Assembly (NCBI GenBank): GCA_001029675.1
Contig: CP011210.1
Location: 948,891-1,012,890, forward strand
From: Candidatus Beckwithbacteria bacterium GW2011_GWC1_49_16
Lineage (GTDB): Bacteria > Patescibacteriota > Microgenomatia > UBA1400 > CG1-02-47-37
Reading direction: 5' to 3'
Length of the DNA: 64,000 nucleotides
Shown: in pieces, positions 2,797 through 61,162 of the stretch
Numbering within the stretch: position 1 is the first letter of the stretch
Layout: each line of letters begins with the position of its first letter
Translations under genes and position numbers: made by a program
The notes under the pieces: model-generated
Told to the model about the DNA's origin: nothing
Seen by the model: the letters and a program-made list of their open reading frames with translations, nothing else
The model's database searches: none

Positions 2797-3130
2797 CGCT
2801 CTCTACGAAAAAAAGCTCAAGCGCGACATCTTTAGGCTGTCGCTGATGACCTTGATCACGGTGGTAATTTGGATCGGGGTAGCCACCTACAGAGCTTTTA
2901 CTAAAAGCCAAGTTGGCGGCAAGATAAAAAGCCAGATTATACCCTTGACGCCTACTCTTGATCTTGACACAATGGAACTTACAGATCAGAGGCTCAAAGT
3001 TGAACCGGTTAACTGGGACAGTCTGCAACCGGTATTTGAGGTGGTGCCGGAAACGGCTGAGCCGGAAGCCTCGCTAAGCGAGGAAGCCTCGCCGAGCGGG
3101 GAAGCCACCGCCAGCGGCTCTCAACTATGA
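2789..3130 (+). CDS. Small membrane-anchored protein, Ser/Glu/Ala-rich C-terminus (possible PilP-position protein)
   Basis: One N-terminal TM helix. Overlaps the pilO stop and the next gene start, i.e. operon-coupled. Confidence 0.35.
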   Translation: MISALYEKKLKRDIFRLSLMTLITVVIWIGVATYRAFTKSQVGGKIKSQIIPLTPTLDLDTMELTDQRLKVEPVNWDSLQPVFEVVPETAEPEASLSEEASPSGEATASGSQL

Positions 3131-4449: not shown

Positions 4450-4458
4450 TATGAAAAT

Positions 4459-5910: not shown

Positions 5911-5919
5911 CTATAAACT

Positions 5920-6828: not shown

Positions 6829-6829
6829 A

Positions 6830-11819: not shown

Positions 11820-11833
11820 GTTATGATTCTAAC

Positions 11834-13636: not shown

Positions 13637-13639
13637 GCG

Positions 13640-14785: not shown

Positions 14786-15644
14786 GCAAGCTCGGGCTTA
14801 TTGGCGATACATGAAAAGCTTAGGCTGGCGGGTGGTCGACGGCGCCTTTGTCAAAAAACTCCCCTTTTTAGCTTTGAGCCTGGTCAAAATCCAAAGGCCG
14901 GAGCGTCAACCTAATCTTGCCGCGCTGAAAAAATTTCGCCCCATCTACATTAGCTACGAACCAGCGGTCAACCACAAACCCCCTGCCGGTTTCCGCCCGG
15001 GGTCACCCCTTTTGCCGTCAAGAACCATTTGGCTTGATTTGAGAAAGAGCCAGAAAAAACTTTTACAAGAAATGCGCCCCAAAACCCGCTACAATATTAA
15101 AAAATTACGGATTACGGATTACGGATTACGGATTACTCAAGGCAGTCAGCTAAGCGACGATCAACTCGCTGCTTTTTACCAAATTTACCGGGAAAACGCT
15201 AAAAAGCAAAGATTTTGGGGAGCAAGCTTTACTCAACTGAAGTCGTTGGCCACCTGTTTTGGTAAAAAGGCTTATTTAATCATTGCCAGACGGATGGCGC
15301 AGGCAGGGGAAAGCCGAAGGCAGGGTTTGGCTGGCAATGATGTCATTGGCGGGCTTTTAATTCTCGTTCACGACCGCGTGGCGTATTACTCCCACAACGC
15401 GGCCACCAATGAAGGGCGCAGGCTCTTTGTTCCCACCATCTTAACTTGGGAGGCGATTAAGCTAGCCAAAAAACTTGGCTGTCATACTTTTGACTTTGAG
15501 GGTATTGACGACCCTCGCTTCCCGGTCACCCGCAAATGGACGGGGTTTTCTCGCTTCAAAAAAAGCTTTGGCGGTAAGGAGGTCAACTACCCCCAGGCTT
15601 TGGTAAAATGGCAAGTACCGTTGTATCGATACAATAGAACTTAA
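14772..15644 (+). CDS. FemAB-family aminoacyltransferase, second copy
   Basis: Paralogous to the previous gene (RPKTRYNIKK vs SKTRYNIRL; FKKSFGG vs FKEGYGG). The start is taken at the internal Met MTDLRQ to avoid a 53-nt overlap. Contains the heptanucleotide repeat listed separately. Confidence 0.6.
   Translation: MTDLRQARAYWRYMKSLGWRVVDGAFVKKLPFLALSLVKIQRPERQPNLAALKKFRPIYISYEPAVNHKPPAGFRPGSPLLPSRTIWLDLRKSQKKLLQEMRPKTRYNIKKLRITDYGLRITQGSQLSDDQLAAFYQIYRENAKKQRFWGASFTQLKSLATCFGKKAYLIIARRMAQAGESRRQGLAGNDVIGGLLILVHDRVAYYSHNAATNEGRRLFVPTILTWEAIKLAKKLGCHTFDFEGIDDPRFPVTRKWTGFSRFKKSFGGKEVNYPQALVKWQVPLYRYNRT
15104..15136 (+). repeat. Tandem heptanucleotide repeat (ATTACGG)x4.7 inside the femAB-2 coding region
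   Basis: Direct reading: attacgg attacgg attacgg attacgg attac, translated as ...LRITDYGLRITQ... Confidence 0.85.
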
Positions 15645-16102
15645 TGATTGTGGCCTTGGAAAACATCAGGAGTCTTTATAACGTCGGGGCGATTTTAAGA
15701 AGCGCCAGCTTTTTTGGAGTGAGCGAGGTATTTTTGGTGGGGGTAACGGGGTCGAGGAAAATCGGCGGCCAAAGGTGGCTTCACGAAGGGTTAGCCAAAA
15801 CCGCTTTGGGAGCAGAATGGCAGTTACAGATCAAAATCTTGAAAGACAGCCAGAAATTGATTGATCTTGCCAAGAAGAACGGTTTGAAACTGGTAGTAGT
15901 GGAGCAAACGGCGGGGGCAACTCCCCTGTCAAGCTTCCGGCCGGGCAAAAACATGGTCTTGGTCTTTGGCAACGAGGTAACTGGCGTCAGTCAAAAAGTT
16001 TTGGCGGCGGCAGACAAGGTGGTAGAAATCCCCCGACGGGGCAAAAAAACTTCTTTAAATGTCGCCGTGGCGGCCGGAATTGTTTTAAGTCGATTGGGGT
16101 AG
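15644..16102 (+). CDS. SpoU/TrmH-family RNA 2'-O-methyltransferase
   Basis: SPOUT motifs: LYNVGAILRSA...LVFGNEVTGVS...SLNVAVAAGIVL. Confidence 0.8.
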   Translation: MIVALENIRSLYNVGAILRSASFFGVSEVFLVGVTGSRKIGGQRWLHEGLAKTALGAEWQLQIKILKDSQKLIDLAKKNGLKLVVVEQTAGATPLSSFRPGKNMVLVFGNEVTGVSQKVLAAADKVVEIPRRGKKTSLNVAVAAGIVLSRLG

Positions 16103-19100
16103 GTCCTGCCTGTCGGTAGGCAGACCCAGGGGCCAGCAGTGGCGGCGGTATTCGCAGCGAAGACAATGGCGTTGATAGTCGGTGGTGCGGGCAAAGCGGT
16201 GGCGGCGAATGGCTTTCATCGAAGACTTGATGGTGGTCATCAATTTGGCTACCTGATCGTCTGGAATGTCAAAGCTTCGTTTGACAAACTTGGTCTTTTT
16301 TAGGCCGGACTCGACAAAATCCAGCTCGGCTTCTAAGACTTTGTAGCTTAGGCGCGGATCAGCAGCAAAAAGAAGCCTGTAGAAAACCAGCTGACGAAAA
16401 AGGTCGCCCGAAGAAGTTTTGGTCTGGCCCAAAATGTCGTTAGCGCTTTTAGTCGGCCCGGTTTTGTAGTCGGTGACCTTGATGGTCTTTTTGGTTTTAT
16501 CGATTAAATCAACCCGGTCGATTTTGCCGGATAAGGGGATGTCGTCCAGGTAGGGCTTGGAGTAAAAACCGCCAAAGCGCAATTCTACGGCCAACGGCTT
16601 GGTCATCTCTTGATGGTAGTAGCGGTAGTAGGCGGCAAGGGCGTTGACGCCTTTATCAATAAAATCGGCGTGTCTCACCGGAGTTAAAACTTCACTACCT
16701 AAAGCTTTCTTAAACTGGCTTAATAAAAATTCCTTGGCGGGCAAGCGGTTGGTTTTGAGGAAGCGGCGGTAGAATATTTCCAAAGCCTTATGGACGGCGG
16801 TGCCAAAAGATAAGTAGGCTTGTTTGGCCCGGGGGACACGAATGAGGTTGTTTAGCTTGAATTTATAGCTGCAGGCCAGATAGGTGTTTAGGGCCGTAGC
16901 CGAGAGTTTAAAGTCTTTTAAAATGAGGTTGAGAAAATCACTTTCTTTGACGGACGGGGTTACCTGGGGCAGGGGTTTTAAGAGTTTGGTTAGGGCCTGT
17001 TTGGCCTGTTTAGTTAATTGGGGTGAGACGGGTTCAAGGTATTTTTGAGGAATTTCGGAAACAAACATGGAGGGGACGGCTTCTTTGCCGGTGACGGAAC
17101 CCGAGTAGCGGTCGGCGTAAGTAACGCAGACTTTTTTGCGGGCGCGGGTTAGCCCCACGTAAAACAGCCGCCTTTCGTCTTCATTTTTCTCTTTTTTTTG
17201 AAGATCGGTGAAGCTTAAGATCCCTTGGGGAAGTTTGATTAACTCCCGGGTGCGGTTGTTGCCCCATTTTTTATCGATAGCCCGATAAATAAAGACGTAG
17301 TCCCATTCCCTCCCCTTGGCTTTGTGGACGGTAGATAGGGTGACGGCGTTGGTTTTTATGTCCAGATCCTGCTCGACGACGCTCAAACGGTTTTGTTCCA
17401 TCAACTCAAGGGCTTTAATGAAACCAACCAAGTTGAGGCTGTGGTCGGCTTGGTTTAAACTTTTGACCTCGGCAAAAAGCGAGTTTAAACGGTTTAGCTT
17501 TTCGACGCTATCGGGCAAAGTCTCGAGCCAGCTTAAAAACCCCGACTGCTTTAAAACCATTTCGAAAAACTGGCTGAAGGTTTTTTCGGCGTCCAGCTTT
17601 CTCCAATCAGAAAGCTTGCCAATAAACTTAGTGATTTTGGAGCCGGATTTGAGCTTTAATTTTTTAAATTGGGGCGAGAGAATAAAGTCCACCAGATTGG
17701 TGTCGGCTTGGGCGACGGCCCGGGAAAGTTTTAAGATATCCAGGGCGTCTAATTTCAAAAACTGATAGTTTAACAGGGTGAATAAATCAAGGTCGTCACC
17801 CGCGCCTCCGCCGGCGTCGCTGATCACTTTCAAAAGGAGCAAAAACTGGTTTACTACCGGGTCGATTAAGACGTTGCCGCCGCCTTCTATGTCCAAACTC
17901 ACCCCAAACTTGGTGAGCATTTCTGCCAGCGTCCCGGCGTCGGCGTTGTGGCGAAAAAGAACGGCGATACTCTCTGGTTTGGTACCTGATTTGATCAGCC
18001 GGTCTATCTCCCGGGCGAGCCAAAAGGTTTCCAGAGTTTCCGAAGGAAATCTGACCAAAGACAGCTTTTGCTCTTTGAATTTACCTTGGGATTTTAATGT
18101 GGTGGTGGCTTTTTTGAGCTGGAGCTGGTTTTTTTTGATGACGGCGGCGGAGGCATCCAGGATGGTTTGAGTGGAACGGTAGTTTTGCGCCAGTTCAATC
18201 ACTTGGGCTTGGGGGAAAAGATTGTTGAAGGCGATAAAGTTCTCGGTCGAAGCTCCTTGGAAGCGAAAAATTGAATTATGAACTACCACATTGTTGGCTA
18301 CAAAATTGTGGCTAGGCGGTACTTCCAAGTCATAAACATTGATGGTTTTTATTTTCTTCTCGCGTTTAATGACTTTATCGTAGATAACCTTATGCCTTCT
18401 AACCACAGGGAGGTAGTTGCCAACTAAAATATTGCCTGCTTGCATTATTCTTGAGGGGCGGTGCTGTATCCTGGTAGTTCCTAAAGGCGCCTTAATATCA
18501 ATAATTCCAGGGAGTTTTCTCTCAAGCTTTTCGGCAATTTTATACAATTGAGAGAAATCAGTGTTATTTAGTCTGAAGCCTTTACCGATATTTTTATTTC
18601 TAAGCTTAAATCCGAGCTTGTTAAGTTTTTTTATGATTTTTTTGTTTGAAGTTTGGATTCGTAGCTCATGAAGAATGGAGGGGGATTGTAGTAGTCCTTT
18701 TTTATCATATTTAGAGCGATAGTTTCTTGAACACATAACAAGGTTAATTTTGATTCTCCCGTCCCCCAAAGTGGTTGCATCTCGAATATAATGGGGTTGA
18801 TTAAGATTTACCCCGAGATCTTGAGCAAGTATGGCAGCATTTTTTTCTGTATCAAACTCTTGATACAGCTTTTTAAGCCACTTGCCAGTAATTGCGTTAT
18901 TTCTTTCTTGAAAAACAACCGTTGGGATTTTGTAGGTAAGCGATAAAACCATTTCACGGTATCTGGCTTCTGCTTCTGATTTGTGTGCTGACAGGCCAAT
19001 AATTTTATCGGCTCCTGCCTCAATTTTTAGTCTTACTGAAAGGCTTCTTGTAATGCCTAAACGCCAACCCAAGCTTTTTTTATACATGAGGTAAACATAC

Positions 19101-20185
19101 CAGATGTTAGTCATTTCTCTGGGCGGGATAAAACAGAACATTTTATGATTATCTGTAGTAGCTATTTTTTGACCTGACTCGGTTGTAAAAGTAATGAGCC
19201 TAACTTTTCTTTTTTGCTTGAAAACCCTTTTAACTTTAGCGTAAGAGGTGTAGCCTTTACCTACCGCGGTTAAAACTTCATCTCCGGCTTTAATCTTTTC
19301 GATGTTTTTAAGGCCTGATTTGGTGTTGATTTTGATGCCCGCCGGCAAACACTGGTTCGGGTCTCCGACAACAAAGACATTGGCCTGATCGCCCCAGTAG
19401 GAAGCCAGAAGTTGTAAAACCTGGTTTTGAGCCGAGTTGGTATCCTGGTACTCGTCAACTAAAAAATAAAGCAGGCGCTCCTGATGGGTTCTTAATATGT
19501 TGGTATCCTGCTTAAAAGCGACTGCCACAAAATTGATCATGTCTTCAAAGTCATAGCGGCCTTTTTGGGCGAGTAACTTTTGGTAGGTTTGATAAACCCG
19601 AGCCAGGTCGTAGTTTTTGTCCAGCGTTTTTCTAGCGTTTAATAAGGCGGTGGCGGAAAGTTTGTTCTTCTCTTTTACCAACGAGGCTTTCTCTTTTTTG
19701 ACGATGGCGGCAAAAGTGATCGGGCTGACGGCTTCTCTTTTGAGGTCTTTTATTGATTCTATTAGGCTTGGGGTGTAGTAGAGGGGCGAGTTGGCCGGCT
19801 TGATAGCTTTAAAACGGCCGTGAGACAAAATCTGGTTAAAAATATCCACCCTTTCCAGTTCGGAAAGAGGCTCAAGATTCAAAGAAATGGCAAAGCGGTC
19901 GGCAAATTCCTGGATGACCGAGGAGCAAAAAGAGTGAAAAGTGGAGATATTAACGTAATAGGCCGGTTGGCCGATAGTGGCAAGTAGCCTCTGGCGCATC
20001 TCTCTGGCGCCGGATTCGGTAAAAGTTAAAGCCAAAATGCCGTCGGGGGGAGTGTCGGTTTTTTTCAAGATGTAAGCGATGCGCTCGGCGATGATCTGGG
20101 TTTTGCCGGTGCCGGGGCCGGCGATGACCATGACCGGGCCTTCGATGGTAGTGACGGCTTTAACTTGGGCCGGGTTTAGCTTCAT
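16085..20185 (-). CDS. UvrD-family helicase fused to a C-terminal Cas4/RecB-like PD-(D/E)xK nuclease with a four-Cys cluster, interrupted by an intein
   Basis: N-terminal Walker A AGPGTGKT and DEYQDTN. Motif III is split (VVGDPNQ | intein | SIFRFQGAS). The C-terminal nuclease carries Cys residues at YLACSYKF and CLRCEYRRHC. Confidence 0.8.
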   Translation of the reverse strand: MKLNPAQVKAVTTIEGPVMVIAGPGTGKTQIIAERIAYILKKTDTPPDGILALTFTESGAREMRQRLLATIGQPAYYVNISTFHSFCSSVIQEFADRFAISLNLEPLSELERVDIFNQILSHGRFKAIKPANSPLYYTPSLIESIKDLKREAVSPITFAAIVKKEKASLVKEKNKLSATALLNARKTLDKNYDLARVYQTYQKLLAQKGRYDFEDMINFVAVAFKQDTNILRTHQERLLYFLVDEYQDTNSAQNQVLQLLASYWGDQANVFVVGDPNQCLPAGIKINTKSGLKNIEKIKAGDEVLTAVGKGYTSYAKVKRVFKQKRKVRLITFTTESGQKIATTDNHKMFCFIPPREMTNIWYVYLMYKKSLGWRLGITRSLSVRLKIEAGADKIIGLSAHKSEAEARYREMVLSLTYKIPTVVFQERNNAITGKWLKKLYQEFDTEKNAAILAQDLGVNLNQPHYIRDATTLGDGRIKINLVMCSRNYRSKYDKKGLLQSPSILHELRIQTSNKKIIKKLNKLGFKLRNKNIGKGFRLNNTDFSQLYKIAEKLERKLPGIIDIKAPLGTTRIQHRPSRIMQAGNILVGNYLPVVRRHKVIYDKVIKREKKIKTINVYDLEVPPSHNFVANNVVVHNSIFRFQGASTENFIAFNNLFPQAQVIELAQNYRSTQTILDASAAVIKKNQLQLKKATTTLKSQGKFKEQKLSLVRFPSETLETFWLAREIDRLIKSGTKPESIAVLFRHNADAGTLAEMLTKFGVSLDIEGGGNVLIDPVVNQFLLLLKVISDAGGGAGDDLDLFTLLNYQFLKLDALDILKLSRAVAQADTNLVDFILSPQFKKLKLKSGSKITKFIGKLSDWRKLDAEKTFSQFFEMVLKQSGFLSWLETLPDSVEKLNRLNSLFAEVKSLNQADHSLNLVGFIKALELMEQNRLSVVEQDLDIKTNAVTLSTVHKAKGREWDYVFIYRAIDKKWGNNRTRELIKLPQGILSFTDLQKKEKNEDERRLFYVGLTRARKKVCVTYADRYSGSVTGKEAVPSMFVSEIPQKYLEPVSPQLTKQAKQALTKLLKPLPQVTPSVKESDFLNLILKDFKLSATALNTYLACSYKFKLNNLIRVPRAKQAYLSFGTAVHKALEIFYRRFLKTNRLPAKEFLLSQFKKALGSEVLTPVRHADFIDKGVNALAAYYRYYHQEMTKPLAVELRFGGFYSKPYLDDIPLSGKIDRVDLIDKTKKTIKVTDYKTGPTKSANDILGQTKTSSGDLFRQLVFYRLLFAADPRLSYKVLEAELDFVESGLKKTKFVKRSFDIPDDQVAKLMTTIKSSMKAIRRHRFARTTDYQRHCLRCEYRRHCWPLGLPTDRQDLPQST
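18275..19351 (-). mobile_element. Intein (~359 aa) inserted in helicase motif III of the UvrD-family protein
   Basis: Starts with Cys (CLPAGIKINTKSG...). Block B TxxH is TTDNH, ~67 aa in. Block F/G is NVYDLEVPPSHNFVANNVVVHN followed by the +1 Ser. Removing it restores VGDPNQSIFRFQGAS. Confidence 0.8.
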
Positions 20186-44460: not shown

Positions 44461-45648
44461 ATGGTTCGAAAGCTTCAAAGCCTTAGCTTAAAGCAACTAA
44501 AAAGTTTTCAAAAAGAATTTGAGCGGCAAACTCGAGCCAGGCTGCAACGCCGGGCCAGTTCGCTGGCTTGGTTTGACTCGCTGATTGGGCCGTGGGAGGG
44601 AAAGTTGATGCAAAAAACACCGGTGGCGGTGGTGGAGCTGGGGGGGTCATTTTTGAGGTTGGGGGTGGCAGAAAGCGGCGACGGAAAAACGGTTGGCTGG
44701 CTTAAAAGGCCGCAAAGTCAAAAAGCGGTTAATTACCACCTAAACTCCCAGGATTTTGTCGACTGGCTGGCGGAAAAAACTTTGCCGTTTTTAAAAGCCG
44801 GCCGGGCCAAAAGGGTGGGGTTTATTTTTTCTTACCCCCACCGGCCCAGACTCAACGGCAGGCATATTACCGGAGTGCTTACCAGGCTAACTAAGGCCCT
44901 GGTGATTCCCGATGCTATCGGGGTGAATGTGGGGAAAATGTATCTTACAGCTTTATCCCACCGTGGCTGGCCTTTGAAAAAACTGGTGACTATAAATGAC
45001 ACCGTGGCGGTGGCCTTGAGCGTGCCTGGCGCCTGGATGGGGTTGGTGATGGGAACAGGGGCCAATATTTGCTCTACCCACCCGAAGTTAAAACGCCTAA
45101 GGAACATCGAGGCGGGTAACTTTGACGGCGGGACCCATACTTTGGCCAGCCTAGCCGTTGATTTGCTGGAAAGGCCGGGAGAGCAGACGATGGAAAAACA
45201 AACTACCGGCCGGTATCAATATCGCGTCTTGGCTTTTGCCGCTTTGACGGCGGGAATGAGACCGGAGTTGGCCCGGGCGATCATGGTTGAAGGCGACAAG
45301 GTCGAGTCTGCCTTGGTGGGGAAAATCAGCCGGGGCCAGTTTAATTTATTAAAGTCTGCTTCTTTGACAAAAACAGAAAAACAAGAGCTGAAGATTATGG
45401 CGCAAATAATTCTGGAAAATGCTTGGCAGATGTGGGGGGCGGTGTTGGCGGCAGTGGTAAAAATGAATCCGGAGAGAGTTAAAAACGGGCCGGTAAAAAT
45501 CCCGGTGACGGGCGGGGTGATATTAAATGAGCCGGTCTTTTTTAACGGCCTTAAAGCGACGGTGGGAAAATTATCGGGTAAGAAAATTGAGCTGGTAAAA
45601 ATCGTTGACCCGATCCGCGGGGCAGCGGTAGCGGCGCTCGTGGAGTAA
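44461..45648 (+). CDS. Actin-fold sugar kinase, hexokinase-like (tentative)
   Basis: VAVVELGGSFLRLGV (cf. LDLGGTNFRV), VTINDTVAVALS (cf. LINDTVGTL) and LVMGTGANICS (cf. GTGxNxAY). Confidence 0.35.
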   Translation: MVRKLQSLSLKQLKSFQKEFERQTRARLQRRASSLAWFDSLIGPWEGKLMQKTPVAVVELGGSFLRLGVAESGDGKTVGWLKRPQSQKAVNYHLNSQDFVDWLAEKTLPFLKAGRAKRVGFIFSYPHRPRLNGRHITGVLTRLTKALVIPDAIGVNVGKMYLTALSHRGWPLKKLVTINDTVAVALSVPGAWMGLVMGTGANICSTHPKLKRLRNIEAGNFDGGTHTLASLAVDLLERPGEQTMEKQTTGRYQYRVLAFAALTAGMRPELARAIMVEGDKVESALVGKISRGQFNLLKSASLTKTEKQELKIMAQIILENAWQMWGAVLAAVVKMNPERVKNGPVKIPVTGGVILNEPVFFNGLKATVGKLSGKKIELVKIVDPIRGAAVAALVE

Positions 45649-52262: not shown

Positions 52263-54494
52263 ATGGATAAGCGTTACCAGCCGGACCTGTTTGAGGATAA
52301 AATTTATCGAGACTGGGAGAAGTCGGGGACTTTTACCCCCAAGGCTAAAGGCGAGGCCTACTCGATCATCATGCCGCCGCCAAATGCCAACGATCCGCTT
52401 CATATCGGCCACGCCTGTTTTGTCACTTTAGAGGACATCTACGCCAGGTTTGAAAGGATGCGGGGCAAATCGGTTTTGTGGCTGCCGGGGACAGACCATG
52501 CCGGCATCGAAACCCAGTACGTCTTTGAAAAACGCTTGAAAAAAGAGGGTAAGAGCCGATTTGATTTTGACCGGGGAACTCTCTACCGGATGATTTGGGA
52601 TTACGTTGAGGAAAACTCGGGAACGGCGATAAAACAGATGAAAAAATTGGGGGCAAGCGCCGATTGGAGCCGGACCAAGTTTACTTTAGATAAAGACGTG
52701 GTCGCGATGGTGGTGGACACTTTCAAAAAACTCTACGATGACGGCTTGGTGTACCGGGAAGTGCGCTTGGTTAACTACTGTACTTCTTGCGGCACGGCCT
52801 TCTCTAACCTGGAGGTGAAGCACGTCGAAAGAGTAAGTCCCCTTTACTACATGAAGTACGGGCCGTTTACCCTGGCGACCACCAGGCCGGAGACCAAGTT
52901 CGGTGATACGGCCATCGAGGTTCACCCCGACGACAAACGTTACCAAAAATGGATCGGCCAAGAAGTCGAGGTCAAAGGTTTGGCGGGTAAGTTCAAGATG
53001 CGGGTGATTGCCGACAGAAGAGTAGACCGGAAGTTTGGCACCGGGGTGGTCAAGGTGACGCCGGCTCACGACTTTAATGATTTTGACGTTTACCTCAAAC
53101 ACAAGAAAGAGGTGCCGGGGCCAAAGCAGGTCATCGGCTTTGACGGCCGGATGAACCAGCTTGCCGGAAAGTACCAAGGACTAAAGGTGATGGAGGCAAG
53201 AAAAGCGGTGGTGGCCGACTTGACCAAGCGGGGCTTAATGGAAAAGGTGGATGAAACCTACCGGAATACCATCGGCGTCTGTTACCGCTGTGGCACAACG
53301 ATCGAGCCTTTACCCCTGCCCCAGTTTTATATCAAGGTAAAACCCCTAACCCAAAGGGCTTTGCGGGCATTAAAAGAGAAAAAAGTGAAGATCTTTGGCG
53401 CCGGCTACGACAAAATTTTGAACCACTGGCTCAAGAGCCTTGACGACTGGAACGTCAGCCGCCAAATCGTTTGGGGCATTCGCTTGCCTATATGGTATGA
53501 GGCTGATAAAAATCCGGAGGTTGAAGTTAAGTTTTTGAACAAAGACAAAAAACTCATAAGCGACCAGGTGGGCGAGTTGTTGAAAAATTATTCGTTGGCA
53601 GAGATAAAACGGGGCTTGCAAAGCCTGCGGGCGCCGCTCACGGCCAAGTTTACCGTCTCCCCTACCTCGCCGGGAGAAAATTTCCTCCAAGAAACCGATA
53701 CCTTTGACACTTGGTTTTCCAGTTCCCAGTGGCCGTTGGTTACCCTGAAGACAAGCAGATTTAAAGATGACTTTAAACGCTTTTACCCCACTAGCCTCAT
53801 GGAGACGGCTTACGACATTTTGATTTTCTGGGTGATGCGGATGCTTTTTATGGGACTTTACTTAACCGGCAAGGTACCTTTTGAAAAGGTTTATCTTCAC
53901 GGCTTGATCCGCGACGAAAAGGGGCAGAAGATGAGTAAGTCTAAGGGAAACGTGGTCGATCCGGTCGAGGTAATCCAAAAATACGGCGCCGACGCCTTAA
54001 GGATGGCTTTGGTAATTCGGTCAACGGCAGGCCGAGACAAAAACGTCGGCGACGATGATATCAGAGGCATGCGCAACTTGACTAACAAGATCTGGAATGC
54101 GGCCCGGTTTGTGATCGTGTCCAATAATACCCACTCAGAACACTCCCGGAGTGGGGTTGCGCCTGCGGCACACTCCGGGAGTGATAGCGACCTGAAAGAT
54201 GAAAAATTTAAGAAGGAGCTGTCCGGCGTGGTGAAGCAAATCACCGACCAGCTTGAAGCGATGAAGCCGGGGCTGGCGGCGGAAACGGTTTATTTCTACT
54301 TCTGGCACTGGTTTTGCGATGAATGTATTGAGCAGAACAAGCAGGGTAAAATTTCGCCACTAGCTTTGATCAAAGGTTTGCGGGTGTTTTTGAAGCTTTT
54401 ACATCCTTTTGTGCCGTTTGTAACCGAGGCAGTCTGGAGGCAGTTGCCCAAGACCGAGGAAAAATTACTGATTGGCGCCCAATGGCCCGCCTGA
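52263..54494 (+). CDS. valS: Valyl-tRNA synthetase
   Basis: PPPNANDPLHIGHA (HIGH), LPGTDHAGIETQ (the ValS hallmark) and KMSKSKGN. The start is taken at MDKRYQPD; the ORF-track start at 52167 reads through the palindromic repeat. Confidence 0.85.
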   Translation: MDKRYQPDLFEDKIYRDWEKSGTFTPKAKGEAYSIIMPPPNANDPLHIGHACFVTLEDIYARFERMRGKSVLWLPGTDHAGIETQYVFEKRLKKEGKSRFDFDRGTLYRMIWDYVEENSGTAIKQMKKLGASADWSRTKFTLDKDVVAMVVDTFKKLYDDGLVYREVRLVNYCTSCGTAFSNLEVKHVERVSPLYYMKYGPFTLATTRPETKFGDTAIEVHPDDKRYQKWIGQEVEVKGLAGKFKMRVIADRRVDRKFGTGVVKVTPAHDFNDFDVYLKHKKEVPGPKQVIGFDGRMNQLAGKYQGLKVMEARKAVVADLTKRGLMEKVDETYRNTIGVCYRCGTTIEPLPLPQFYIKVKPLTQRALRALKEKKVKIFGAGYDKILNHWLKSLDDWNVSRQIVWGIRLPIWYEADKNPEVEVKFLNKDKKLISDQVGELLKNYSLAEIKRGLQSLRAPLTAKFTVSPTSPGENFLQETDTFDTWFSSSQWPLVTLKTSRFKDDFKRFYPTSLMETAYDILIFWVMRMLFMGLYLTGKVPFEKVYLHGLIRDEKGQKMSKSKGNVVDPVEVIQKYGADALRMALVIRSTAGRDKNVGDDDIRGMRNLTNKIWNAARFVIVSNNTHSEHSRSGVAPAAHSGSDSDLKDEKFKKELSGVVKQITDQLEAMKPGLAAETVYFYFWHWFCDECIEQNKQGKISPLALIKGLRVFLKLLHPFVPFVTEAVWRQLPKTEEKLLIGAQWPA

Positions 54495-54931
54495 ACCCTT
54501 ACGTCAAAGTTTTGGGGGCGAGAATTTATCGGCCGGTAAAACCGCTGCTTGATCCCCTATTTTCCCGAGTAAAACCGGTACATATATTGATTCTGTTGCT
54601 GGTGGTGGGACTCGGGGGAAGTTTTTGGCCTGTCGTGGACGGCAGATTAAACTTGGCGCCGTCGGCTCAAGAAAAAGCGGCGTGGTGGCCGGGGTCAAAA
54701 GAAACCGAAGAATGGGTGAGCCGCCCCGATAGACTGCGAGCAGAAATTTTAAAATGGGAAAAGGTTTTGCAAGACAGGCCCTACGACCAGGGAGTGCTAC
54801 TCCAACTGGCAGTTCTAAATTGGCAGGTGTACGAAGAGCAAAAAGCGCTGGAGTACTTTGCCAGGGCAAAATACCTTGACCCAAATAACGCTGAAGTCCG
54901 AAGGCTGGGAGAATCTATTTTTCTTTTTTAG
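54482..54931 (+). CDS. Membrane-anchored TPR-like protein, hypothetical
   Basis: One TM helix and TPR-like helices at the C-terminus. Confidence 0.3.
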   Translation: MARLNPYVKVLGARIYRPVKPLLDPLFSRVKPVHILILLLVVGLGGSFWPVVDGRLNLAPSAQEKAAWWPGSKETEEWVSRPDRLRAEILKWEKVLQDRPYDQGVLLQLAVLNWQVYEEQKALEYFARAKYLDPNNAEVRRLGESIFLF

Positions 54932-55643
54932 GTTCAGGCTTGGGCTTGTCGGCGGGTTTTTCTTCCTCTTTCTTCTCCCCTTCTTTTTCAGCCTCGCCTT
55001 CGGCGGGAGCGGTTTCTGCCTCGGCGGCGGCTTCGCCTTCTGCCGGAGCGGCCTCGACGGGTTTTTCTTCCTCTTTAGCCGGTTCTTCGATCTGGACGAC
55101 AATCTCCTCTGGGTTTTCGGTAACCAGTTTGACTTTGGCGGCGTCAACTTTGATGTCTTTTAAGGTCAAGCCCTGGCCGATTTCTTCAAGGGTAGAAACG
55201 TCTAAAACAAATTTATCAGGCAAATCGGTAGGCAGGGCTTCGACTTCGATCTCGTCTAAGACTTGAACCAGCACCCCACCCTTGTTGACTCCGGGGGCTT
55301 CGCCGGTTAATTCAATAGGAATATCGACGGTGACTTTCTTGGTCAGGTCGACCTGGTGGAAGTCAACGTGCAACAGTTCGTCGGTGACGGGGTGAAGGTG
55401 GACGTTGTGGATCAAAGCCGGACGGGCCTTGGTTTCTTTGTCGACCTTGAGTTCAATAATGCCGGTCTCCCCTGCCTGATCAAAGGCGGCTTTGAAGTCC
55501 TTGGCGGGCACCTGGACAGCCAAAGATTTAACGTCCTTGCCGTAGATGTTGCCGGGCAACACCCCCTCGCGGCGGAGCTTTTTAACTTTTCTACCGGTAA
55601 GGTCTCTTTTTATGACGGAAAGCTTGATTTTATCAGTGGCCAT
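54915..55643 (-). CDS. rplY: 50S ribosomal protein L25 / general stress protein Ctc, with an acidic/Lys-rich C-terminal tail
   Basis: ...VIKRDLTGRKVKKLRREGVLPGNIYG... is the L25 signature; a ~60-aa E/A/K/P-rich low-complexity tail follows. Confidence 0.8.
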   Translation of the reverse strand: MATDKIKLSVIKRDLTGRKVKKLRREGVLPGNIYGKDVKSLAVQVPAKDFKAAFDQAGETGIIELKVDKETKARPALIHNVHLHPVTDELLHVDFHQVDLTKKVTVDIPIELTGEAPGVNKGGVLVQVLDEIEVEALPTDLPDKFVLDVSTLEEIGQGLTLKDIKVDAAKVKLVTENPEEIVVQIEEPAKEEEKPVEAAPAEGEAAAEAETAPAEGEAEKEGEKKEEEKPADKPKPEPKKEK

Positions 55644-55670: not shown

Positions 55671-58600
55671 TTACTTCTCAATAAAGTCGACGGTGAAGAC
55701 ACGGTCGTAGGAAAGATCGGACTCGAAGGTGGTTACTTGGGCAGAAGTGAGGGCCCGGGGAGAAGTGGAGGTGGCTAGTAAGAAAGATGGATGGTTGACG
55801 ATGACCTTGACCGGATCGGCGATGATGCCCGGCTGCTTGGGAATGACGACCGCCAGTTTGCCCTCGCGCGACCCCTCTTGGGGAGCGGTAGCCAGCTTAC
55901 CCGGCAAGCGGTAGGTCATCTCCACCGCCAAGGTGTGCTTGACCGGAACGGTAACGGGGAAGCCTAAAACGAGTTTGTCACCCACCTGGGAGGCATCGAT
56001 GTCGGCCTCGGGGTCAAGCTTGGTCTCGCCTACTTTGACCGAGATGACTCGCGAACCGGCGGGAATGTAAGCTCTTAAATAGCTTCGGTAATTTCCTCCG
56101 GGCCAGGCGTCCGCCGGGCTTTGGTTTTGGTAGGTAATGGTAGCAGTAGATAGAATTTCCTTAGTCTTTAGAATGGTCAGCTGGTATTCCAGCTCTCGGT
56201 TTAAGAAGTAGTTGGCTTTATTGATGCCCAAGTTGGCCTCGACGGGATAAAAGTAGTCGACGATCGGGGCGGGGTTGGCGGCGATTAAGGGGGCATAGAG
56301 AGCGCCGGCCCAGTTTTGTTCTAAAAGAATTTTTTGGCTGCCCTCGTCGTGGAGATTGAGAAGAATTTGTTTTTGGGTCATGGCGGTTTCGAGGGCTTGG
56401 GTAAACTGGAGTAGTTCGCCGGCAGAGGCGTTTTGGGCTCGGTCGAAAAGTTCACGGGCAAGAGACCCCAAAAAGTCTTTCTTTTGAGTTGAGCCGGGGA
56501 AAAAGTCGATTTCAGTGCGGTATTCGGCACGCTCAAACAAGTTGGTGGCGGTGATTTCCTCGTTGAAGTCGGGCAGTTTAACCGGGCCGGTGACTTTAAG
56601 AAATTCTCTGGCGGCCGGGAGGTTGACGGCGATCACCCCATCGACGTTTCTGCCGGTGGATTTGTTGAGAAACCACTCGGCGCGGGGGCCGGAGACGGTA
56701 AAATCGGGGTCCCAGTTCGAGTCCCTAAAAAACCACGAGTTCTGGCCTAAAAACTCCTTGAGGGGTTCGGGGGGTTCGACAAAACCAGACAGCTGGCCGT
56801 CGGCGGCGTAGATGTCTTCGACAGTGAAGTCTAAAAGCTTCCCTTTTTCAAAGGTGAGTAAACCATAGGAACCGATGAATCCCCCTGTAGGACGGATCTC
56901 GGCGTTGTTTTGAAACAAAATTAGGTAGGTTTTTTTGGAGTTTTGAGCGATTAGATCGGGAACCAACGGCAGCATCACCCGAGCCTGGTTGACTTTTTGG
57001 CGAATGGCGGGAAAGTCGGTGGTCAACTGGTGGAGTTTTTGGCTTAAAGGAGTAGACAGGTTCAGACTCAACTGCCTGCCGCTTTGGAGTTCGGACTCAA
57101 CAAAAGAGAGTTCGGAGTAGGCTTGGTCGAGGTTAACCTTGATACGATTTAGGGCTAAATCGAGGTTGCCGTCTTGGTGCTTGAGGACGATTGAGGCTAA
57201 CAAGGTACCGTCTTGGGCGGCGGCGGCTAGGTGGAGAGTCCCCTGGCTTAGTTTGCCGCCGATGAACAGGAGTTGATCAAGGTTGGTAGCCAACTCCCCT
57301 GCCCCAACTGCGCTTAAGACCGCGTGGCGGCTTCGCAGTAACCGGCGGGAAGATTGAAAGTGTCTGTCGGCCGAGGTGGTGAGTTTTTCCAGTCGGTCCA
57401 GGTGGGTAAGGTCGGTCGATGAGGCAGCCTGGTTTAAGTAACTGACACCCAAAAGGGTATGGCCTATCATTAAAACCAGGGGTCCGAGGACAAGAACCAG
57501 GGCGAGAGCGAGGGTGAGGACGGCGGTTTTGGTCCGACGAGAAAGTTTGCTGAAGCCGGGAAATTGGGGAAGCTTGGGAAGTTTGGAAAGTTTGGGATGT
57601 TTGGGAAGTTTGAATTTAGGCAAGGCCGGAAACTTAGGTATAGTAATATTTTTTTTGGGAGCATCGGGGAAGGCTGGCTTAATCCCCAACTCTTCCAAAG
57701 AAAGCTGGTCTTCCCGGCGGGGTGTTTCTGGGGGGGGTGGTTGTTTAATTTCTTCAGGTAGTTTGGCCTGGCCGCTTTGGAGCCATTCTAAGGTGCGGGT
57801 AATCCCCTCTTCAAGGTCTACCTTGGATGTCCAACCTAGGTTTTGTTGAGAATTTAAGGTTTCCTTAGGAAGGCTCATTGGGCCGAGAGTGTCTTCGCCT
57901 TTGACGAAGTCAATTTTCAAACCCTTGTCGGCTAAAACCTCTTTGATTTTGTAGGCCACGTTTAGAAGAGTAATTTTCTCCGGATTTAGCAGGGTGTAGA
58001 TCTCGCCGGTGGAGCTTTGGGTGAACATGGCCTTGGTGAGGCCGTAGACGATATCGGATACAAAAGTGGGGTAAAGAGGGGTGAGGCCGTTGCCGGGGAT
58101 TTCCAGGGTATCTCCCTTTTTGGCGGCAAGAAAGAGTTTGGCCAGACCGGTGCCGGTGGCAAGATCCATGCGGGGGCCGTAGACGTGGGCGAGGCGGACG
58201 ACGCGGGCGTCAAGCTGGTGGCGGTTGACGTATTCAAAAGTTAGAGCCTCGCTGAAACGCTTGGCTTCGTGGTGAGAATAGAGTTCTTGGGCGACGTGGT
58301 CGGAGCCAAAATAATGAGTCAAGTCGCTAGTGGCGAGGCGAGCGGAAAAAATATCGGTGGTGGAGGCGAGAAGAAACTTAGCTTGGTGTTTTTTGGCTAT
58401 TTCTAAAAGCTCGCGGCTGCCCAGGGAGTTGACCAAAAGCGTGTCCAGGCTGACGTCGAGGCCATTGACATAGGCTTCGATGCCGGCCAAGTGAAAGACG
58501 TAGTCGACCTGGGGCAGATTGGTTTTTAAAGGTTTGTTTAGGTCGTGCTCAAAAAAAACAAAGTTCTTTTGGTCAAGCAAGTGGTTGAGGTTTTGTTTTT

Positions 58601-58769
58601 TGCCGCTTAAAAAATTGTCGATGCCATAGACCAAACAGTTTTGCAAAATTAAAGCGTCGCAGAGATGGGAGCCAATAAAGCCGGCGGCGCCGGCGACCAG
58701 GGCGGTGGGGAGGTGAGAAGACGACTTAACTTGTTGGACAGATTTTTTGGCAGGCATAGCTTGAACCAA
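55671..58769 (-). CDS. Fusion protein: N-terminal NAD-dependent epimerase/dehydratase (SDR), central TM and KLPKLP-repeat linker, C-terminal DUF4012-like domain
   Basis: GAAGFIGSHL Rossmann motif; KFPALPKFKLPKHPKLSKLPKLPQFPGF repeats; ...PTGGFIGSYGLL... in the C-terminal half. Confidence 0.55.
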   Translation of the reverse strand: MVQAMPAKKSVQQVKSSSHLPTALVAGAAGFIGSHLCDALILQNCLVYGIDNFLSGKKQNLNHLLDQKNFVFFEHDLNKPLKTNLPQVDYVFHLAGIEAYVNGLDVSLDTLLVNSLGSRELLEIAKKHQAKFLLASTTDIFSARLATSDLTHYFGSDHVAQELYSHHEAKRFSEALTFEYVNRHQLDARVVRLAHVYGPRMDLATGTGLAKLFLAAKKGDTLEIPGNGLTPLYPTFVSDIVYGLTKAMFTQSSTGEIYTLLNPEKITLLNVAYKIKEVLADKGLKIDFVKGEDTLGPMSLPKETLNSQQNLGWTSKVDLEEGITRTLEWLQSGQAKLPEEIKQPPPPETPRREDQLSLEELGIKPAFPDAPKKNITIPKFPALPKFKLPKHPKLSKLPKLPQFPGFSKLSRRTKTAVLTLALALVLVLGPLVLMIGHTLLGVSYLNQAASSTDLTHLDRLEKLTTSADRHFQSSRRLLRSRHAVLSAVGAGELATNLDQLLFIGGKLSQGTLHLAAAAQDGTLLASIVLKHQDGNLDLALNRIKVNLDQAYSELSFVESELQSGRQLSLNLSTPLSQKLHQLTTDFPAIRQKVNQARVMLPLVPDLIAQNSKKTYLILFQNNAEIRPTGGFIGSYGLLTFEKGKLLDFTVEDIYAADGQLSGFVEPPEPLKEFLGQNSWFFRDSNWDPDFTVSGPRAEWFLNKSTGRNVDGVIAVNLPAAREFLKVTGPVKLPDFNEEITATNLFERAEYRTEIDFFPGSTQKKDFLGSLARELFDRAQNASAGELLQFTQALETAMTQKQILLNLHDEGSQKILLEQNWAGALYAPLIAANPAPIVDYFYPVEANLGINKANYFLNRELEYQLTILKTKEILSTATITYQNQSPADAWPGGNYRSYLRAYIPAGSRVISVKVGETKLDPEADIDASQVGDKLVLGFPVTVPVKHTLAVEMTYRLPGKLATAPQEGSREGKLAVVIPKQPGIIADPVKVIVNHPSFLLATSTSPRALTSAQVTTFESDLSYDRVFTVDFIEK

Positions 58770-58862: not shown

Positions 58863-59288
58863 TTAAACTTCGTCCAAGGCCTGGTTGACCAGTAAATCGG
58901 CTTCGAAGTTTTTGGCGCGGGGAATGGCGGTATAAGAAACAGCAAGGCCGAGTTTACCTTCAAGCTCCCTGACTTCAATGACTTTTTGGCGCAAGGAAGC
59001 GTCTTTAACTTTCCAGTTGCCGTTTAATTGGTTGACGACTAGGGTGGAATCCAAAAAAAATTTACAATTTTTGAATTTAGATTTTCGAATTGTTTCCCGG
59101 TGACTGGTCAACCACTCCAGGGCGACGATGACGGCTTGGTACTCGGCTTGGTTGTTGGTGGTTTTGCCGATATATTTGCCAAACCGGTGGAGGGTTTTTT
59201 GGTTTTGATCTTTGATGACGACGCCGGTGGCGGCTGGGCCGGGGTTGCCGCGGGCACCGCCGTCAACAAAGATATTAAGATTGTTCAT
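58863..59288 (-). CDS. rnhA: Ribonuclease HI
   Basis: ...IFVDGGARGNPGPAATGVV...TNNQAEYQAVIVALEW... Confidence 0.85.
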   Translation of the reverse strand: MNNLNIFVDGGARGNPGPAATGVVIKDQNQKTLHRFGKYIGKTTNNQAEYQAVIVALEWLTSHRETIRKSKFKNCKFFLDSTLVVNQLNGNWKVKDASLRQKVIEVRELEGKLGLAVSYTAIPRAKNFEADLLVNQALDEV

Positions 59289-59739
59289 CGGCCAAGCGAA
59301 CTATCAGGTGGCGGTTTTTACCCTCGCCTTGGGACTCGGTGGTGACTTCGGGGGTAGCACTTAAAAACTGGTGGATGAGGCGGCGCTCGTAGGGGTTTAA
59401 GTTAAAAAGAGCAATGGGCTCGCCGGAGTAGATGACTTTCTCGGCGGTGGCCTGGGCCATTTGCTCTAAGTCTTGGGACCTTTTTTGGCGGTAGTCGCCG
59501 ACGTTAACGACCACTTTGACCCACTGGCCTTGATCTTTATAAAGGAGCAGGCCCAAAATCAGCTGGAGGGCGGAAATAGTTTCGCCGTGGTAGCCGATGA
59601 GCACCCCCGCGTCCTCATCGGAGGCAACGATGTCGACTTGATAGCCATCGTCCGGGTTCTTTTTAACACTGATTTTTTCCGGCTTGATGTCCAGGTGGTC
59701 AAGAAGGTCGCCAAGGAGAGATTTAATTTTTTTGTCCAT
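59275..59739 (-). CDS. khpB: Jag/KhpB RNA-binding protein (KH and R3H domains)
   Basis: ...GYHGETISALQLI... KH motif and ...ERRLIHQFL... R3H motif. Confidence 0.8.
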   Translation of the reverse strand: MDKKIKSLLGDLLDHLDIKPEKISVKKNPDDGYQVDIVASDEDAGVLIGYHGETISALQLILGLLLYKDQGQWVKVVVNVGDYRQKRSQDLEQMAQATAEKVIYSGEPIALFNLNPYERRLIHQFLSATPEVTTESQGEGKNRHLIVRLADEQS

Positions 59740-60511
59740 TTTTTAGTCTCATCTGCTGGATAAGCATAAAGATAGAAAAGGTTAGCCAGTATAGTACCAG
59801 GCCCGAAGGAAAACGCAAGCCGACAAACAGGGTCATGATGGGAAAGAGATAAAGCATCTGTTCCTGCATGGCGGCGGCGATGTCGTCGGATTTGGCTTCG
59901 GTCTTTTTGGCTTTGGCCTGGGTGCCCTTGGTGGCGGTGAGCATTAAACGAGAGGAAAAGAATTGGATGATGGCGGCGGCGATCAAAAAGGGGCCGGGGA
60001 GGCTAGAAAACTTTATCGGCCCGAGGTTAACTTGGGGGACAGGAATTAAGTCGGGGCGGGTGAGGTCAAGGTAGAAAAATTTAGAGTTGATGGTGGCGTC
60101 GGCGGCCAGTTTTAGGGGTTGATAAAGCAGTTGGTTTAAGCTGTCGACGACGTTGCCGCCATTTTGGAGGACTTGGTTAAAAGCTTGAAAAAGGGCGATA
60201 AGGATGACGATTTGGACGATTTGGGGTAAGCAGCCGGCGGCGGGGTTGACGCCTTCTTTTTGGTAGAACTTTAGTTGGGCCTGGGCGAAGGCTTGGCGGT
60301 CTTGGCCGTATTTTTCTTTGAGTTTGGCCAGTTCCGGCTGAAGCTCTTTTAACTTTTGGGCGGATTTAATCGACGGAGCGGTTAAGGGGTTTAAAGCGCC
60401 TCTAATGACGGCGGTCAGGCCGATGATCGCCAGGCCTAAATTTTGGCCTAAAACCTGGTAGAAGAAAATCAGGGCATTGACCAGCGGCTGGAAAAAAATA
60501 AGTTTCCACAT
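59723..60511 (-). CDS. yidC: Membrane protein insertase YidC (short form)
   Basis: ...AIIGLTAVIRGALNPLT... and the typical 5-TM arrangement. Confidence 0.85.
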   Translation of the reverse strand: MWKLIFFQPLVNALIFFYQVLGQNLGLAIIGLTAVIRGALNPLTAPSIKSAQKLKELQPELAKLKEKYGQDRQAFAQAQLKFYQKEGVNPAAGCLPQIVQIVILIALFQAFNQVLQNGGNVVDSLNQLLYQPLKLAADATINSKFFYLDLTRPDLIPVPQVNLGPIKFSSLPGPFLIAAAIIQFFSSRLMLTATKGTQAKAKKTEAKSDDIAAAMQEQMLYLFPIMTLFVGLRFPSGLVLYWLTFSIFMLIQQMRLKNGQKN

Positions 60512-60515
60512 AGTG

Positions 60516-60728
60516 TTATTTTAATGGGTCGGAGCCTCCGGCTGACCAGGGGTGACAGCGAACTATTCGCCTCAGCCCGAACCACGAACCTTTTAATATA
60601 CCATACTTTTTGATGGCCTCATAAGAGTATTGGCTGCAGCTGGGAGTAAACCTACAGCCGCCTTCGACCAGATGAAACCAGCGGTTTTTTTGGTATGTCT
60701 TAATCAGCTTTAAAATGAGGCGCTTCAT
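60516..60728 (-). CDS. yidD: Membrane protein insertion efficiency factor YidD
   Basis: ...[19 protein letters not shown]... Confidence 0.8.
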
Positions 60729-60984
60729 AAACTAAAAACAAATAATCTTTTCCGGGCTCATAAGCTCCTATTTGCTTTTCAATTGCTATCATGGTTTGTC
60801 GTTTCATGTTGTTGCGCTGGACGGCGCCGCGAGCTGCCTTTTTGGTGATGACTACGCCGAAACGGGGGCGGTCCAAGTGGTTTGCCGCGGCCTTGACGGT
60901 TAGCCCGGGCTCGCGTTTAACCACCGGCGCTGACAGCAGTTGTCTAACGCGGTAGCCGGGGAGGCGGTGAACTCGGGGAAGCAT
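60700..60984 (-). CDS. rnpA: Ribonuclease P protein component
   Basis: Basic ~94-aa protein, ...RLGVVITKK-like [22 protein letters not shown]. Confidence 0.8.
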
Positions 60985-61024: not shown

Positions 61025-61162
61025 TTATACCGCCAACCTCTGGCGTTTTTTGGCGCGGCGGCGCGCCAGCACCTTTCTGCCGGCGGCTGTGCTTTGTTTT
61101 TTTCTAAAGCCGTAGCGGCGGCTGCGGCGGCGCTTGGAGGGTTGATAAGTGCGTTTAGGCAT
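61025..61162 (-). CDS. rpmH: 50S ribosomal protein L34
   Basis: Translated by hand: [45 protein letters not shown]. It is below the ORF-track size cut-off. Confidence 0.85.

Follow-up and report, generated by a model that had tools for sequence, protein, structure and literature searches.

What might a protein do that carries a sugar-nucleotide enzyme fold on one side of a membrane and a domain of uncharacterized function on the other? This question is raised by a minus-strand gene at positions 55671 to 58769 of a 64,000-nucleotide stretch of Candidatus Beckwithbacteria bacterium GW2011_GWC1_49_16 (contig CP011210.1), referred to here as the window. Its product joins an extended short-chain dehydrogenase/reductase (SDR) domain, descended from UDP-xylose synthase (UXS), to a transmembrane (TM) helix and a large ectodomain containing DUF4012. 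The explanation we favor, at roughly even confidence, is that this is an envelope glycopolymer assembly protein that combines an ectodomain resembling the LytR-CpsA-Psr (LCP) proteins with a noncatalytic cytoplasmic domain.

The open reading frame (ORF) runs without interruption or in-frame stop from a TTG codon to the stop codon at 55671 to 55673 and encodes 1,032 amino acids (aa); the public record begins four codons downstream, at an ATG at 58757, and gives 1,028 aa. The protein is 100% identical to OGD50381.1 from Candidatus Beckwithbacteria bacterium RIFCSPHIGHO2_02_FULL_49. A Pfam profile search placed two domains above their cutoffs: Epimerase (PF01370) at residues 23 to 258 (E value of 3e-26; 92.6 bits versus a gathering cutoff of 20.9) and DUF4012 (PF13196) at residues 612 to 747 (E value of 3.5e-28; 99.4 bits versus a cutoff of 28). 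An earlier note on this DNA had described the ORF as a single fusion of an extended-SDR fold with a membrane-anchored DUF4012 domain and had proposed such a search as the check. That description is borne out: neither an in-frame stop nor an absence of DUF4012 similarity, the two findings that the note named as fatal to it, was encountered. The DUF4012 similarity is strong, and the DUF4012-type motif PTGGFIGSYGLL is present in the ORF.

Between the two domains lies one hydrophobic segment, a TM helix at residues ~415 to 443 (57441 to 57527; all features of this gene are on the minus strand), with the basic sequence KLSRRTK on its N-terminal side. No N-terminal signal sequence was found in the ORF protein. 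Because the single TM segment has a basic N-terminal flank and no signal sequence precedes it, the sequence predicts an N-in/C-out topology with the SDR domain inside and the DUF4012 region outside, as the earlier note had also read it. A single TM segment was found in 85 of the 86 homologues scored. The arrangement is that of LCP proteins, an N-in anchor followed by an extracytoplasmic domain; two TM helices flanking a periplasmic domain of the polysaccharide copolymerase (PCP) fold, the hallmark of Wzz/PCP proteins, were not found.

We modeled residues 415 to 1032 with AlphaFold2 from a 73-sequence alignment (pLDDT, 93.1; pTM, 0.90); a model of the core only reached a pLDDT of 88.8. In the predicted structure, an extracytoplasmic stalk of about five long helices continues the TM helix (residues ~416 to 606, with residues 444 to 606 encoded at 56952 to 57440) and is followed by the DUF4012 α/β core (residues ~607 to 826; 56292 to 56951) and by a C-terminal β-sandwich of the DUF4424, LTA4H N-domain, or OST1 type (residues ~836 to 1032; 55674 to 56264). 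The structure 4g2a is a DUF4424 protein, a 19-stranded sandwich resembling the LTA4H N-domain (PMC3848476), and therefore accounts for the C-terminal domain. Generic helical-bundle matches (Bro1, MIT, TPR) were also obtained with the ectodomain model. The predicted core has the α-β-α arrangement of the LCP fold, a central sheet flanked by helices. One entry from the fold comparison of the ectodomain, 5v8c, is named LCP, and a canonical LCP encoded in the window itself (10752 to 11819) retrieves, by sequence, nine PDB entries that the same comparison had returned. We are highly confident that the modeled DUF4012 core has an LCP-like fold.

Conservation points to a particular site within this core. 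Across 337 diverse DUF4012 cores, Glu624, Arg626, Gly629, Gly630, and Asn685 are invariant, and Gln620, Asn621, Tyr654, Asp657, Arg682, Asp683, and Asn743 are conserved in at least 93%. The signature loop QNNAEIRPTGGFIGS (residues 620 to 634; 56868 to 56912) is the likely functional site. From strand order only, we infer that the invariant Glu-x-Arg at the end of the first strand may correspond to the LCP Asp-x-Arg position. In the LCP protein Cps2A, R267, R362, and R374 bind pyrophosphate and D234 and D246 bind Mg2+ (PMC7831098). Compared with LCP phosphotransferases (Cps2A, TagT/U/V, S. aureus LcpA/MsrR, A. oris LcpA), DUF4012 has no detectable sequence similarity and carries a different conserved set (QNxxExRPTGGFIGS, DGQ, RDSNW). 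Unlike LCP proteins, DUF4012 proteins also possess a ~160-residue helical stalk and, at the C terminus, a ~200-residue β-sandwich, and the present subfamily has a large cytoplasmic SDR-like domain in addition. The literature on DUF4012, PF13196, or IPR025101 yielded passing mentions only, with no characterization or LCP link found. For this uncharacterized family, the LCP-like predicted fold provides a testable hypothesis, the binding or transfer of polyprenyl-pyrophosphate-linked glycans, with Glu624 and Arg626 as candidate residues for mutation.

We propose that the protein is a bitopic, N-in/C-out cell envelope assembly protein whose LCP-like outer domain stands on the helical stalk with the large β-sandwich alongside. 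By analogy with the LCP phosphotransferases, the DUF4012 core would bind a polyprenyl-(pyro)phosphate-linked glycan at the outer face of the membrane. The site would be made up of the Glu-x-Arg...Gly-Gly loop, which is invariant, together with conserved Asp, Arg, and Asn residues, and the core would transfer or release the bound glycan as it becomes attached to the wall or to some other acceptor. Flipping and polymerization of the glycan would fall to Wzx- and Wzy-like proteins, which many relatives encode beside the gene. The UXS-derived domain would bind a nucleotide or nucleotide-sugar, or would dimerize or dock, and in this way tie the outer domain to the state of the cytoplasm.

A species-level scan, with one genome per GTDB species, yielded 80 DUF4012 loci; in 19 of them there is a Wzy-like gene no more than 3 kb away, in 12 there is a Wzx-like gene no more than 1.5 kb away, and 30 share adjacency to RNaseH, L25, or Wzy. 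Between jag and rnhA, two related loci (L003 and L005) carry genes for Wzy_C and for Polysacc_synt (a Wzx-type flippase), and a Wzy_C gene is found nearby at a third (L002). In an exopolysaccharide (EPS) cluster of Bifidobacterium longum, a priming glycosyltransferase gene and wzz flank a stand-alone DUF4012 gene (PMC5412050). Its product, BL105A_0406, belongs like ours to PF13196 and is associated with polysaccharide loci of the Wzx/Wzy type, whereas stand-alone proteins of its type have no SDR-like cytoplasmic domain; their function is equally uncharacterized.

The cytoplasmic domain (residues 20 to 335; 57765 to 58712) descends, by profile matches and alignments, from UXS. Its nearest solved relative in a single-sequence PDB search is human UDP-xylose synthase UXS1 (3.7e-43), and in a search with the family profile UXS1 scored 4e-78 versus 6e-43 for the next SDR, a result that bears on the SDR domain only. 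The GAAGFIG motif is present, its Gly columns being conserved in 111 to 115 of 115 aligned sequences, and GxxGxxG, Asp51, the Thr/Ser at position 137 (Thr137 here), and Lys170 are all kept. The SDR triad Ser/Thr-Tyr-Lys is nevertheless incomplete. HMMER and MAFFT both align the Lys of YxxxK (EAKRFSE versus EGKRVAE) but set the Tyr opposite His166. In the 113 full-length members, the column of the catalytic Tyr holds His (84), Leu (12), Phe (9), Gln (3), Ser (2), Tyr (2), and Lys (1), so that Tyr is replaced in 111; 34 more diverse domains have Leu, Phe, His, Ile, Gln, Thr, or Val there, without a single Tyr. The residue is also absent from the best-preserved WWE3, Saccharibacteria-labelled, and Nomurabacteria fusions.

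Two further UXS positions, the Glu of STSEVY and the Arg of QTRAF in human UXS1, have catalytic roles in UXS and ArnA. The Arg is Leu232 here and Leu, Ile, Val, or Glu across the family. At the Glu position this protein has Asp139, and the family has Asp (75), Asn (12), Gln (9), or Glu (8). In place of HLASPASP stands a family signature, DY[IV]FH[LM]AG[LIV]E..Y. The domain therefore does not carry the set of residues that would mark it as a UXS, namely, the triad together with the UXS Glu and Arg. We consider it well supported by the alignments that the N-terminal domain is not a canonical UXS or epimerase, and since the catalytic Tyr and the UXS Arg are lost, it is probably no working epimerase or dehydratase; it probably makes no UDP-xylose and epimerizes no sugars. 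The earlier note's description of a "typical" UDP-sugar epimerase/dehydratase does not survive these substitutions. UXS1 (PDB 4gll/2b69) and the ArnA decarboxylase domain have in common with it the extended-SDR fold, GxxGxxG, the Asp at the end of β2, the Ser/Thr, and the Lys. They differ in that the present domain has His, Leu, Phe, or Gln for the Tyr and Leu, Ile, Val, or Glu for the Arg, has HLAG[LIV]E..Y instead of HLASPASP, and is followed in the same polypeptide by a TM helix and an ectodomain. Eukaryotic UXS1 is membrane anchored too, as a type II protein.

Several observations weigh against an LCP-like assembly protein with a noncatalytic cytoplasmic domain. The LCP resemblance is one of fold, on a predicted rather than a solved structure. 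The Pfam LCP model PF03816 (LytR_cpsA_psr) gave no match at E values up to 0.1. When the DUF4012 core was compared with LCP by hhalign, the probabilities were 0.3% and 1.2%, the second run using 337 DUF4012 sequences; the alignment on the LCP side was narrow, limited to LCPs of the Candidate Phyla Radiation (CPR; Neff, 3.7), which makes this a weak negative. No Wzy or Wzx homologue was found in the 64-kb window with seeds from relatives at an E value of <0.01, and the window's unannotated membrane ORFs gave only sub-threshold matches of the GT-C type. The genome also encodes the canonical LCP at 10752 to 11819, and DUF4012 therefore need not be the ligase. On the cytoplasmic side, the SDR-like domain is strongly conserved and has a His-His pair at the Tyr position (84 and 70 of 113 members), and judging from the alignment a lineage-specific, noncanonical activity may be built on this pair.

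One alternative is a nonenzymatic scaffold, an LCP-like fold without catalysis that would partner with the Wzx/Wzy machinery or with YidC-inserted envelope proteins and use the β-sandwich as a binding module. Chain-length control, polymer guidance, and glycan binding are examples of the roles it could have. In sequence, DUF4012 does not show the canonical LCP constellation of Arg and Asp residues, a long helical stalk with a large β-sandwich is typical of scaffolds, a bona fide LCP is available within the same window, and the B. longum protein is labelled an "auxiliary protein." We regard a scaffold as unlikely on balance, although it is the most substantial of the alternatives.

The cytoplasmic domain could instead be an active half of a bifunctional enzyme, an NAD-dependent epimerase, dehydratase, or decarboxylase acting on UDP-sugars, which would feed a modified sugar nucleotide to the DUF4012-served machinery at the membrane. 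Such an enzyme would fit the Pfam Epimerase match above cutoff, UXS1 as nearest solved relative (3.7e-43), the retained Rossmann motif, Thr137, and Lys170, and the strong constraint on the domain; the His-His pair of most close relatives could in principle serve as acid/base, and public records give the name UDP-glucuronate decarboxylase. Yet chemically unrelated residues (His, Leu, Phe, Gln, Ser, Lys) stand in for Tyr in 111 of 113 members, and the UXS Arg has gone as well. None of the NCBIfam equivalogs (dTDP-glucose 4,6-dehydratase, GalE, LegB, and others) came near its cutoff, the best being TIGR01181 with 71.5 bits versus 365.1. Moreover, other lineages keep the ectodomain but have either a decayed SDR-like domain, with even the Gly motif lost, or none. 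In some, a cytoplasmic region of 170 to 345 aa yields no more than weak, partial, co-linear SDR matches, the Gly-rich motif is lost in three (L020, L030, L037), and in others the TM helix lies inside the first 63 residues and leaves no cytoplasmic domain. Among the 80 species-level loci, the SDR domain is strong in 15, weak in 11, and missing in 54. Taken together, this evidence makes an active enzyme quite improbable.

If the domain is noncatalytic, as in the explanation we favor, its conservation calls for another use. Identity to our protein in close and far relatives, respectively, is 74% and 46% for the DUF4012 core, 63% and 43% for the SDR domain, 61% and 30% for the β-sandwich, 52% and 18% for the helical stalk, and 31% and 12% for the linker; in both groups, constraint on the SDR-like domain is second only to that on the core. 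It is likely that the SDR fold is in use, not for canonical Tyr-dependent redox chemistry but for dinucleotide or nucleotide-sugar binding or for dimerization. Extended SDRs dimerize via the helices bearing YxxxK. Atypical SDRs of another kind, NmrA and HSCARG/NMRAL1, have a Rossmann SDR fold that has kept dinucleotide binding without the catalytic Tyr and act in sensing or protein-protein interaction. We propose, by analogy, that the cytoplasmic domain works as they do; they are soluble regulators and are not homologous to the present domain at the subfamily level. The PglF/WbpM/CapD proteins (Polysacc_synt_2, PF02719) likewise tether an SDR-fold nucleotide-sugar domain to the membrane in polysaccharide pathways, but in the reverse order, with N-terminal TM helices, a C-terminal active SDR with intact catalytic residues, and no ectodomain. 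PF02719 gave no match to the ORF protein in the Pfam scan.

More tentatively, DUF4012 as a whole may be a second branch of the LCP superfamily that is unrecognizable by sequence and serves as ligase or pyrophosphatase for Wzx/Wzy glycopolymers in Patescibacteria and in Gram-positive EPS loci, placed in Microgenomates and WWE3 under the transmembrane control of a dead UXS domain acting as a sensor of NAD(H) or UDP-sugars. If true, this would be a transmembrane link from cytoplasmic precursor or redox state to the attachment of wall glycopolymers.

The SDR domain is connected to the membrane by a Pro/Lys-rich cytoplasmic juxtamembrane linker (residues 336 to 414; 57528 to 57764), in which the motif LSLEELGIKPA is conserved among close relatives. 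An imperfect 9-bp tandem repeat at 57558 to 57612 (6.1 copies with 82% matches by Tandem Repeats Finder; plus-strand consensus, GGGAAGTTT) encodes KFPALPKFKLPKHPKLSKLPKLPQFPGF, a series of (K-[LF]-P)-type tripeptides. The linker coding sequence also contains an A8 homopolymer (T8 on the plus strand) at 57649 to 57656 and a C8 homopolymer (G8 on the plus strand) encoding PPPP at 57730 to 57737. The repeat and the A8 tract are as the earlier note had reported them, and the note had suggested the tract as a slippage site. With a repeat and two 8-nucleotide homopolymers within 180 bp, and with linker length differing between homologues, this could be a phase-variable contingency gene in which slippage switches or resizes the protein. 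The 9-bp unit keeps the reading frame, however, and the repeat therefore cannot switch the gene off. Neither repeat-length nor homopolymer-length variants were seen among the six strain variants of the 90%-identity cluster; all six share one linker sequence, and the C8 tract is invariant. One of the six, AKM79831.1 (P0241), lies on a 1.05-Mb contig, and this exact 1,028-aa protein is indexed, intact, in 78 blocks of the assembly collection. Eight-nucleotide runs are at background frequency, with 11 homopolymers of this length in the window, three of them in this gene (T8 at 57649, G8 at 57730, A8 at 58551), and A/T runs of 8 occurring about once per 6 kb; the G8/C8 tract, 74 bp from the A8 tract, is the sole G/C run of 8. 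The gene also sits in a housekeeping operon. Phase variation is thus very improbable, and slippage at the A8 tract finds no support here.

In homologues, the linkers from SDR domain to TM helix are 27 to 142 aa long (median, 73), with ~15% Pro and ~22% Lys plus Arg, and KLxLPK-type units recur immediately before the membrane. The 9-bp repeat thus reads as one local instance of a family-wide basic tether that is conserved in composition. Within the proposed assembly protein, the Pro/Lys-rich repeat would be a flexible basic tether beside the membrane, with a length that drifts over evolutionary time, rather than a phase-variation switch.

That two separate genes were joined by an assembly or annotation error can be dismissed, given more than 110 full-length fusions of identical domain order from independent sources, one of them on a 1.05-Mb contig; other loci (L027, L045) belong to records titled chromosome or complete genome. 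The full-length homologues (~1,000 aa, 31 to 63% identity; NCBI, JGI, ENA, and Logan) carry Epimerase followed by DUF4012. A search with the ectodomain only against 1.84 billion representative proteins (50%-identity clusters) retrieved 10,928 clusters at an E value of ≤1e-3 and 3,821 at ≤1e-30. The best 150 matches are mostly proteins of 900 to 1,100 aa in which the match begins at residue 350 to 550, and 110 of 139 new ectodomain representatives match a hidden Markov model built from the family's SDR domain. The record titles of the 80 species-level loci include Beckwith-, Gottesman-, Woese-, Shapiro-, Curtiss-, and Levybacteria, WWE3, Saccharibacteria, and Nomura-, Moran-, Uhr-, Falkow-, Magasanik-, Doudna-, and Peribacteria. 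DUF4012 is among the families enriched in CPR and Gram-positive bacteria (Meheust et al., PMC6744442). No DUF4012 paralogue was found in the window or in five related loci. Many Patescibacteria carry the fusion as a common core gene in conserved synteny; the earlier note's view of it as unusual holds against well-studied bacteria and fails within Patescibacteria. The actinobacterial link that the note drew also falls away, the host being a member of the Patescibacteria/CPR.

Among the distant DUF4012 proteins without an SDR domain, several (L048, L059, L067, L068, L075, L080) have long, charged, disordered-looking N-terminal tails; inspected by eye for further enzyme domains, these N-terminal regions looked low in complexity and charged. 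Several such tails share an SP[HY]V[VIL]xL motif (e.g., VSPHVVSLKNEE and ISPYVLNLKA).

The family is already in databases, as "DUF4012 domain-containing protein," "nucleoside-diphosphate-sugar epimerase," and "UDP-glucuronate decarboxylase." AKM79831.1 bears the last of these names, and JGI entries also carry enzyme names. Because proteins so named have neither the catalytic Tyr nor the UXS Arg, the names "UDP-glucuronate decarboxylase" and "nucleoside-diphosphate-sugar epimerase" are probably wrong, apparently a case of systematic over-annotation that may mislead metabolic reconstructions of the already sparse CPR genomes.

The gene, here X, is the seventh of eight tightly packed, co-directional genes in the order rpmH-rnpA-yidD-yidC-jag/khpB-rnhA-X-rplY, an oriC-proximal string that is divergent from dnaA-dnaN. 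Upstream of it on the minus strand lie rpmH (61025 to 61162), rnpA (60700 to 60984), yidD (60516 to 60728), yidC (59723 to 60511), jag/khpB (59275 to 59739), and rnhA (58863 to 59288). Immediately downstream is rplY, for ribosomal protein L25/Ctc (54915 to 55643, minus strand), an adjacency conserved in relatives. The string was found in relatives with protein identities of 57%, 36%, 35%, 32%, and 32%. A conserved place near oriC, with yidC, jag, Wzx, and Wzy as neighbors, suggests that the gene belongs to the core envelope-building machinery of these ultra-small bacteria. A scan of the operon for consensus promoters and terminators gave nothing useful.

Some features of the same string are recorded here in their own right. 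The rplY product ends in a highly charged, Glu/Lys/Ala/Pro-rich tail of ~55 residues (…EEPAKEEEKPVEAAPAEGEAAAEAETAPAEGEAEKEGEKKEEEKPADKPKPEPKKEK). Convergent with rplY is a plus-strand ORF of 149 aa (54482 to 54931) that has sub-threshold TPR matches only and shares 13 bp with the end of valS; at most of the related loci inspected (L001 and L003 to L006), a small opposite-strand ORF occupies the same place after rplY, with faint TPR matches in L003 only. The string yidC-jag-Wzy-Wzx-rnhA-DUF4012-rplY also occurs in metagenome-assembled genomes titled "uncultured Gammaproteobacteria," "Pseudomonadales," "Lysobacterales," and "Bdellovibrionales" (L007, L009, L010, L013, L018, L021 to L023, and others); the gene string is of CPR type, and these taxonomic labels are probably wrong.

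Elsewhere the window encodes a PMT-type GT-C, GT87-like and PMT_2-like membrane proteins (both sub-threshold), the canonical LCP, two FemAB proteins, a GT2, a GT4 (MraY/WecA type), and a UbiA prenyltransferase. Some of these belong to an envelope gene cluster at 3127 to 15644 that contains an Ig/fn3 surface protein, the PMT-type GT-C (6830 to 8197), the sub-threshold GT87-like protein (9538 to 10836), the canonical LCP (10752 to 11819), and the FemAB-family genes in tandem (13640 to 15644).

Other genes of the window deserve brief mention. A 1,366-aa UvrD/AddA-type helicase-nuclease (16085 to 20185, minus strand) has a match to Intein_splicing (PF14890) at residues 312 to 637, between its helicase N- and C-terminal domains. 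A 395-aa protein (44461 to 45648, plus strand) matches Pfam Hexokinase_1 (6e-14) and Hexokinase_2 (5e-9) and no ROK-type glucokinase model; these hexokinase families are of eukaryote type and would be unusual in a bacterium. Finally, PilN- and PilO-like genes at the start of the window (1626 to 2796, plus strand) fit the type IV pilus systems reported to be common in CPR.

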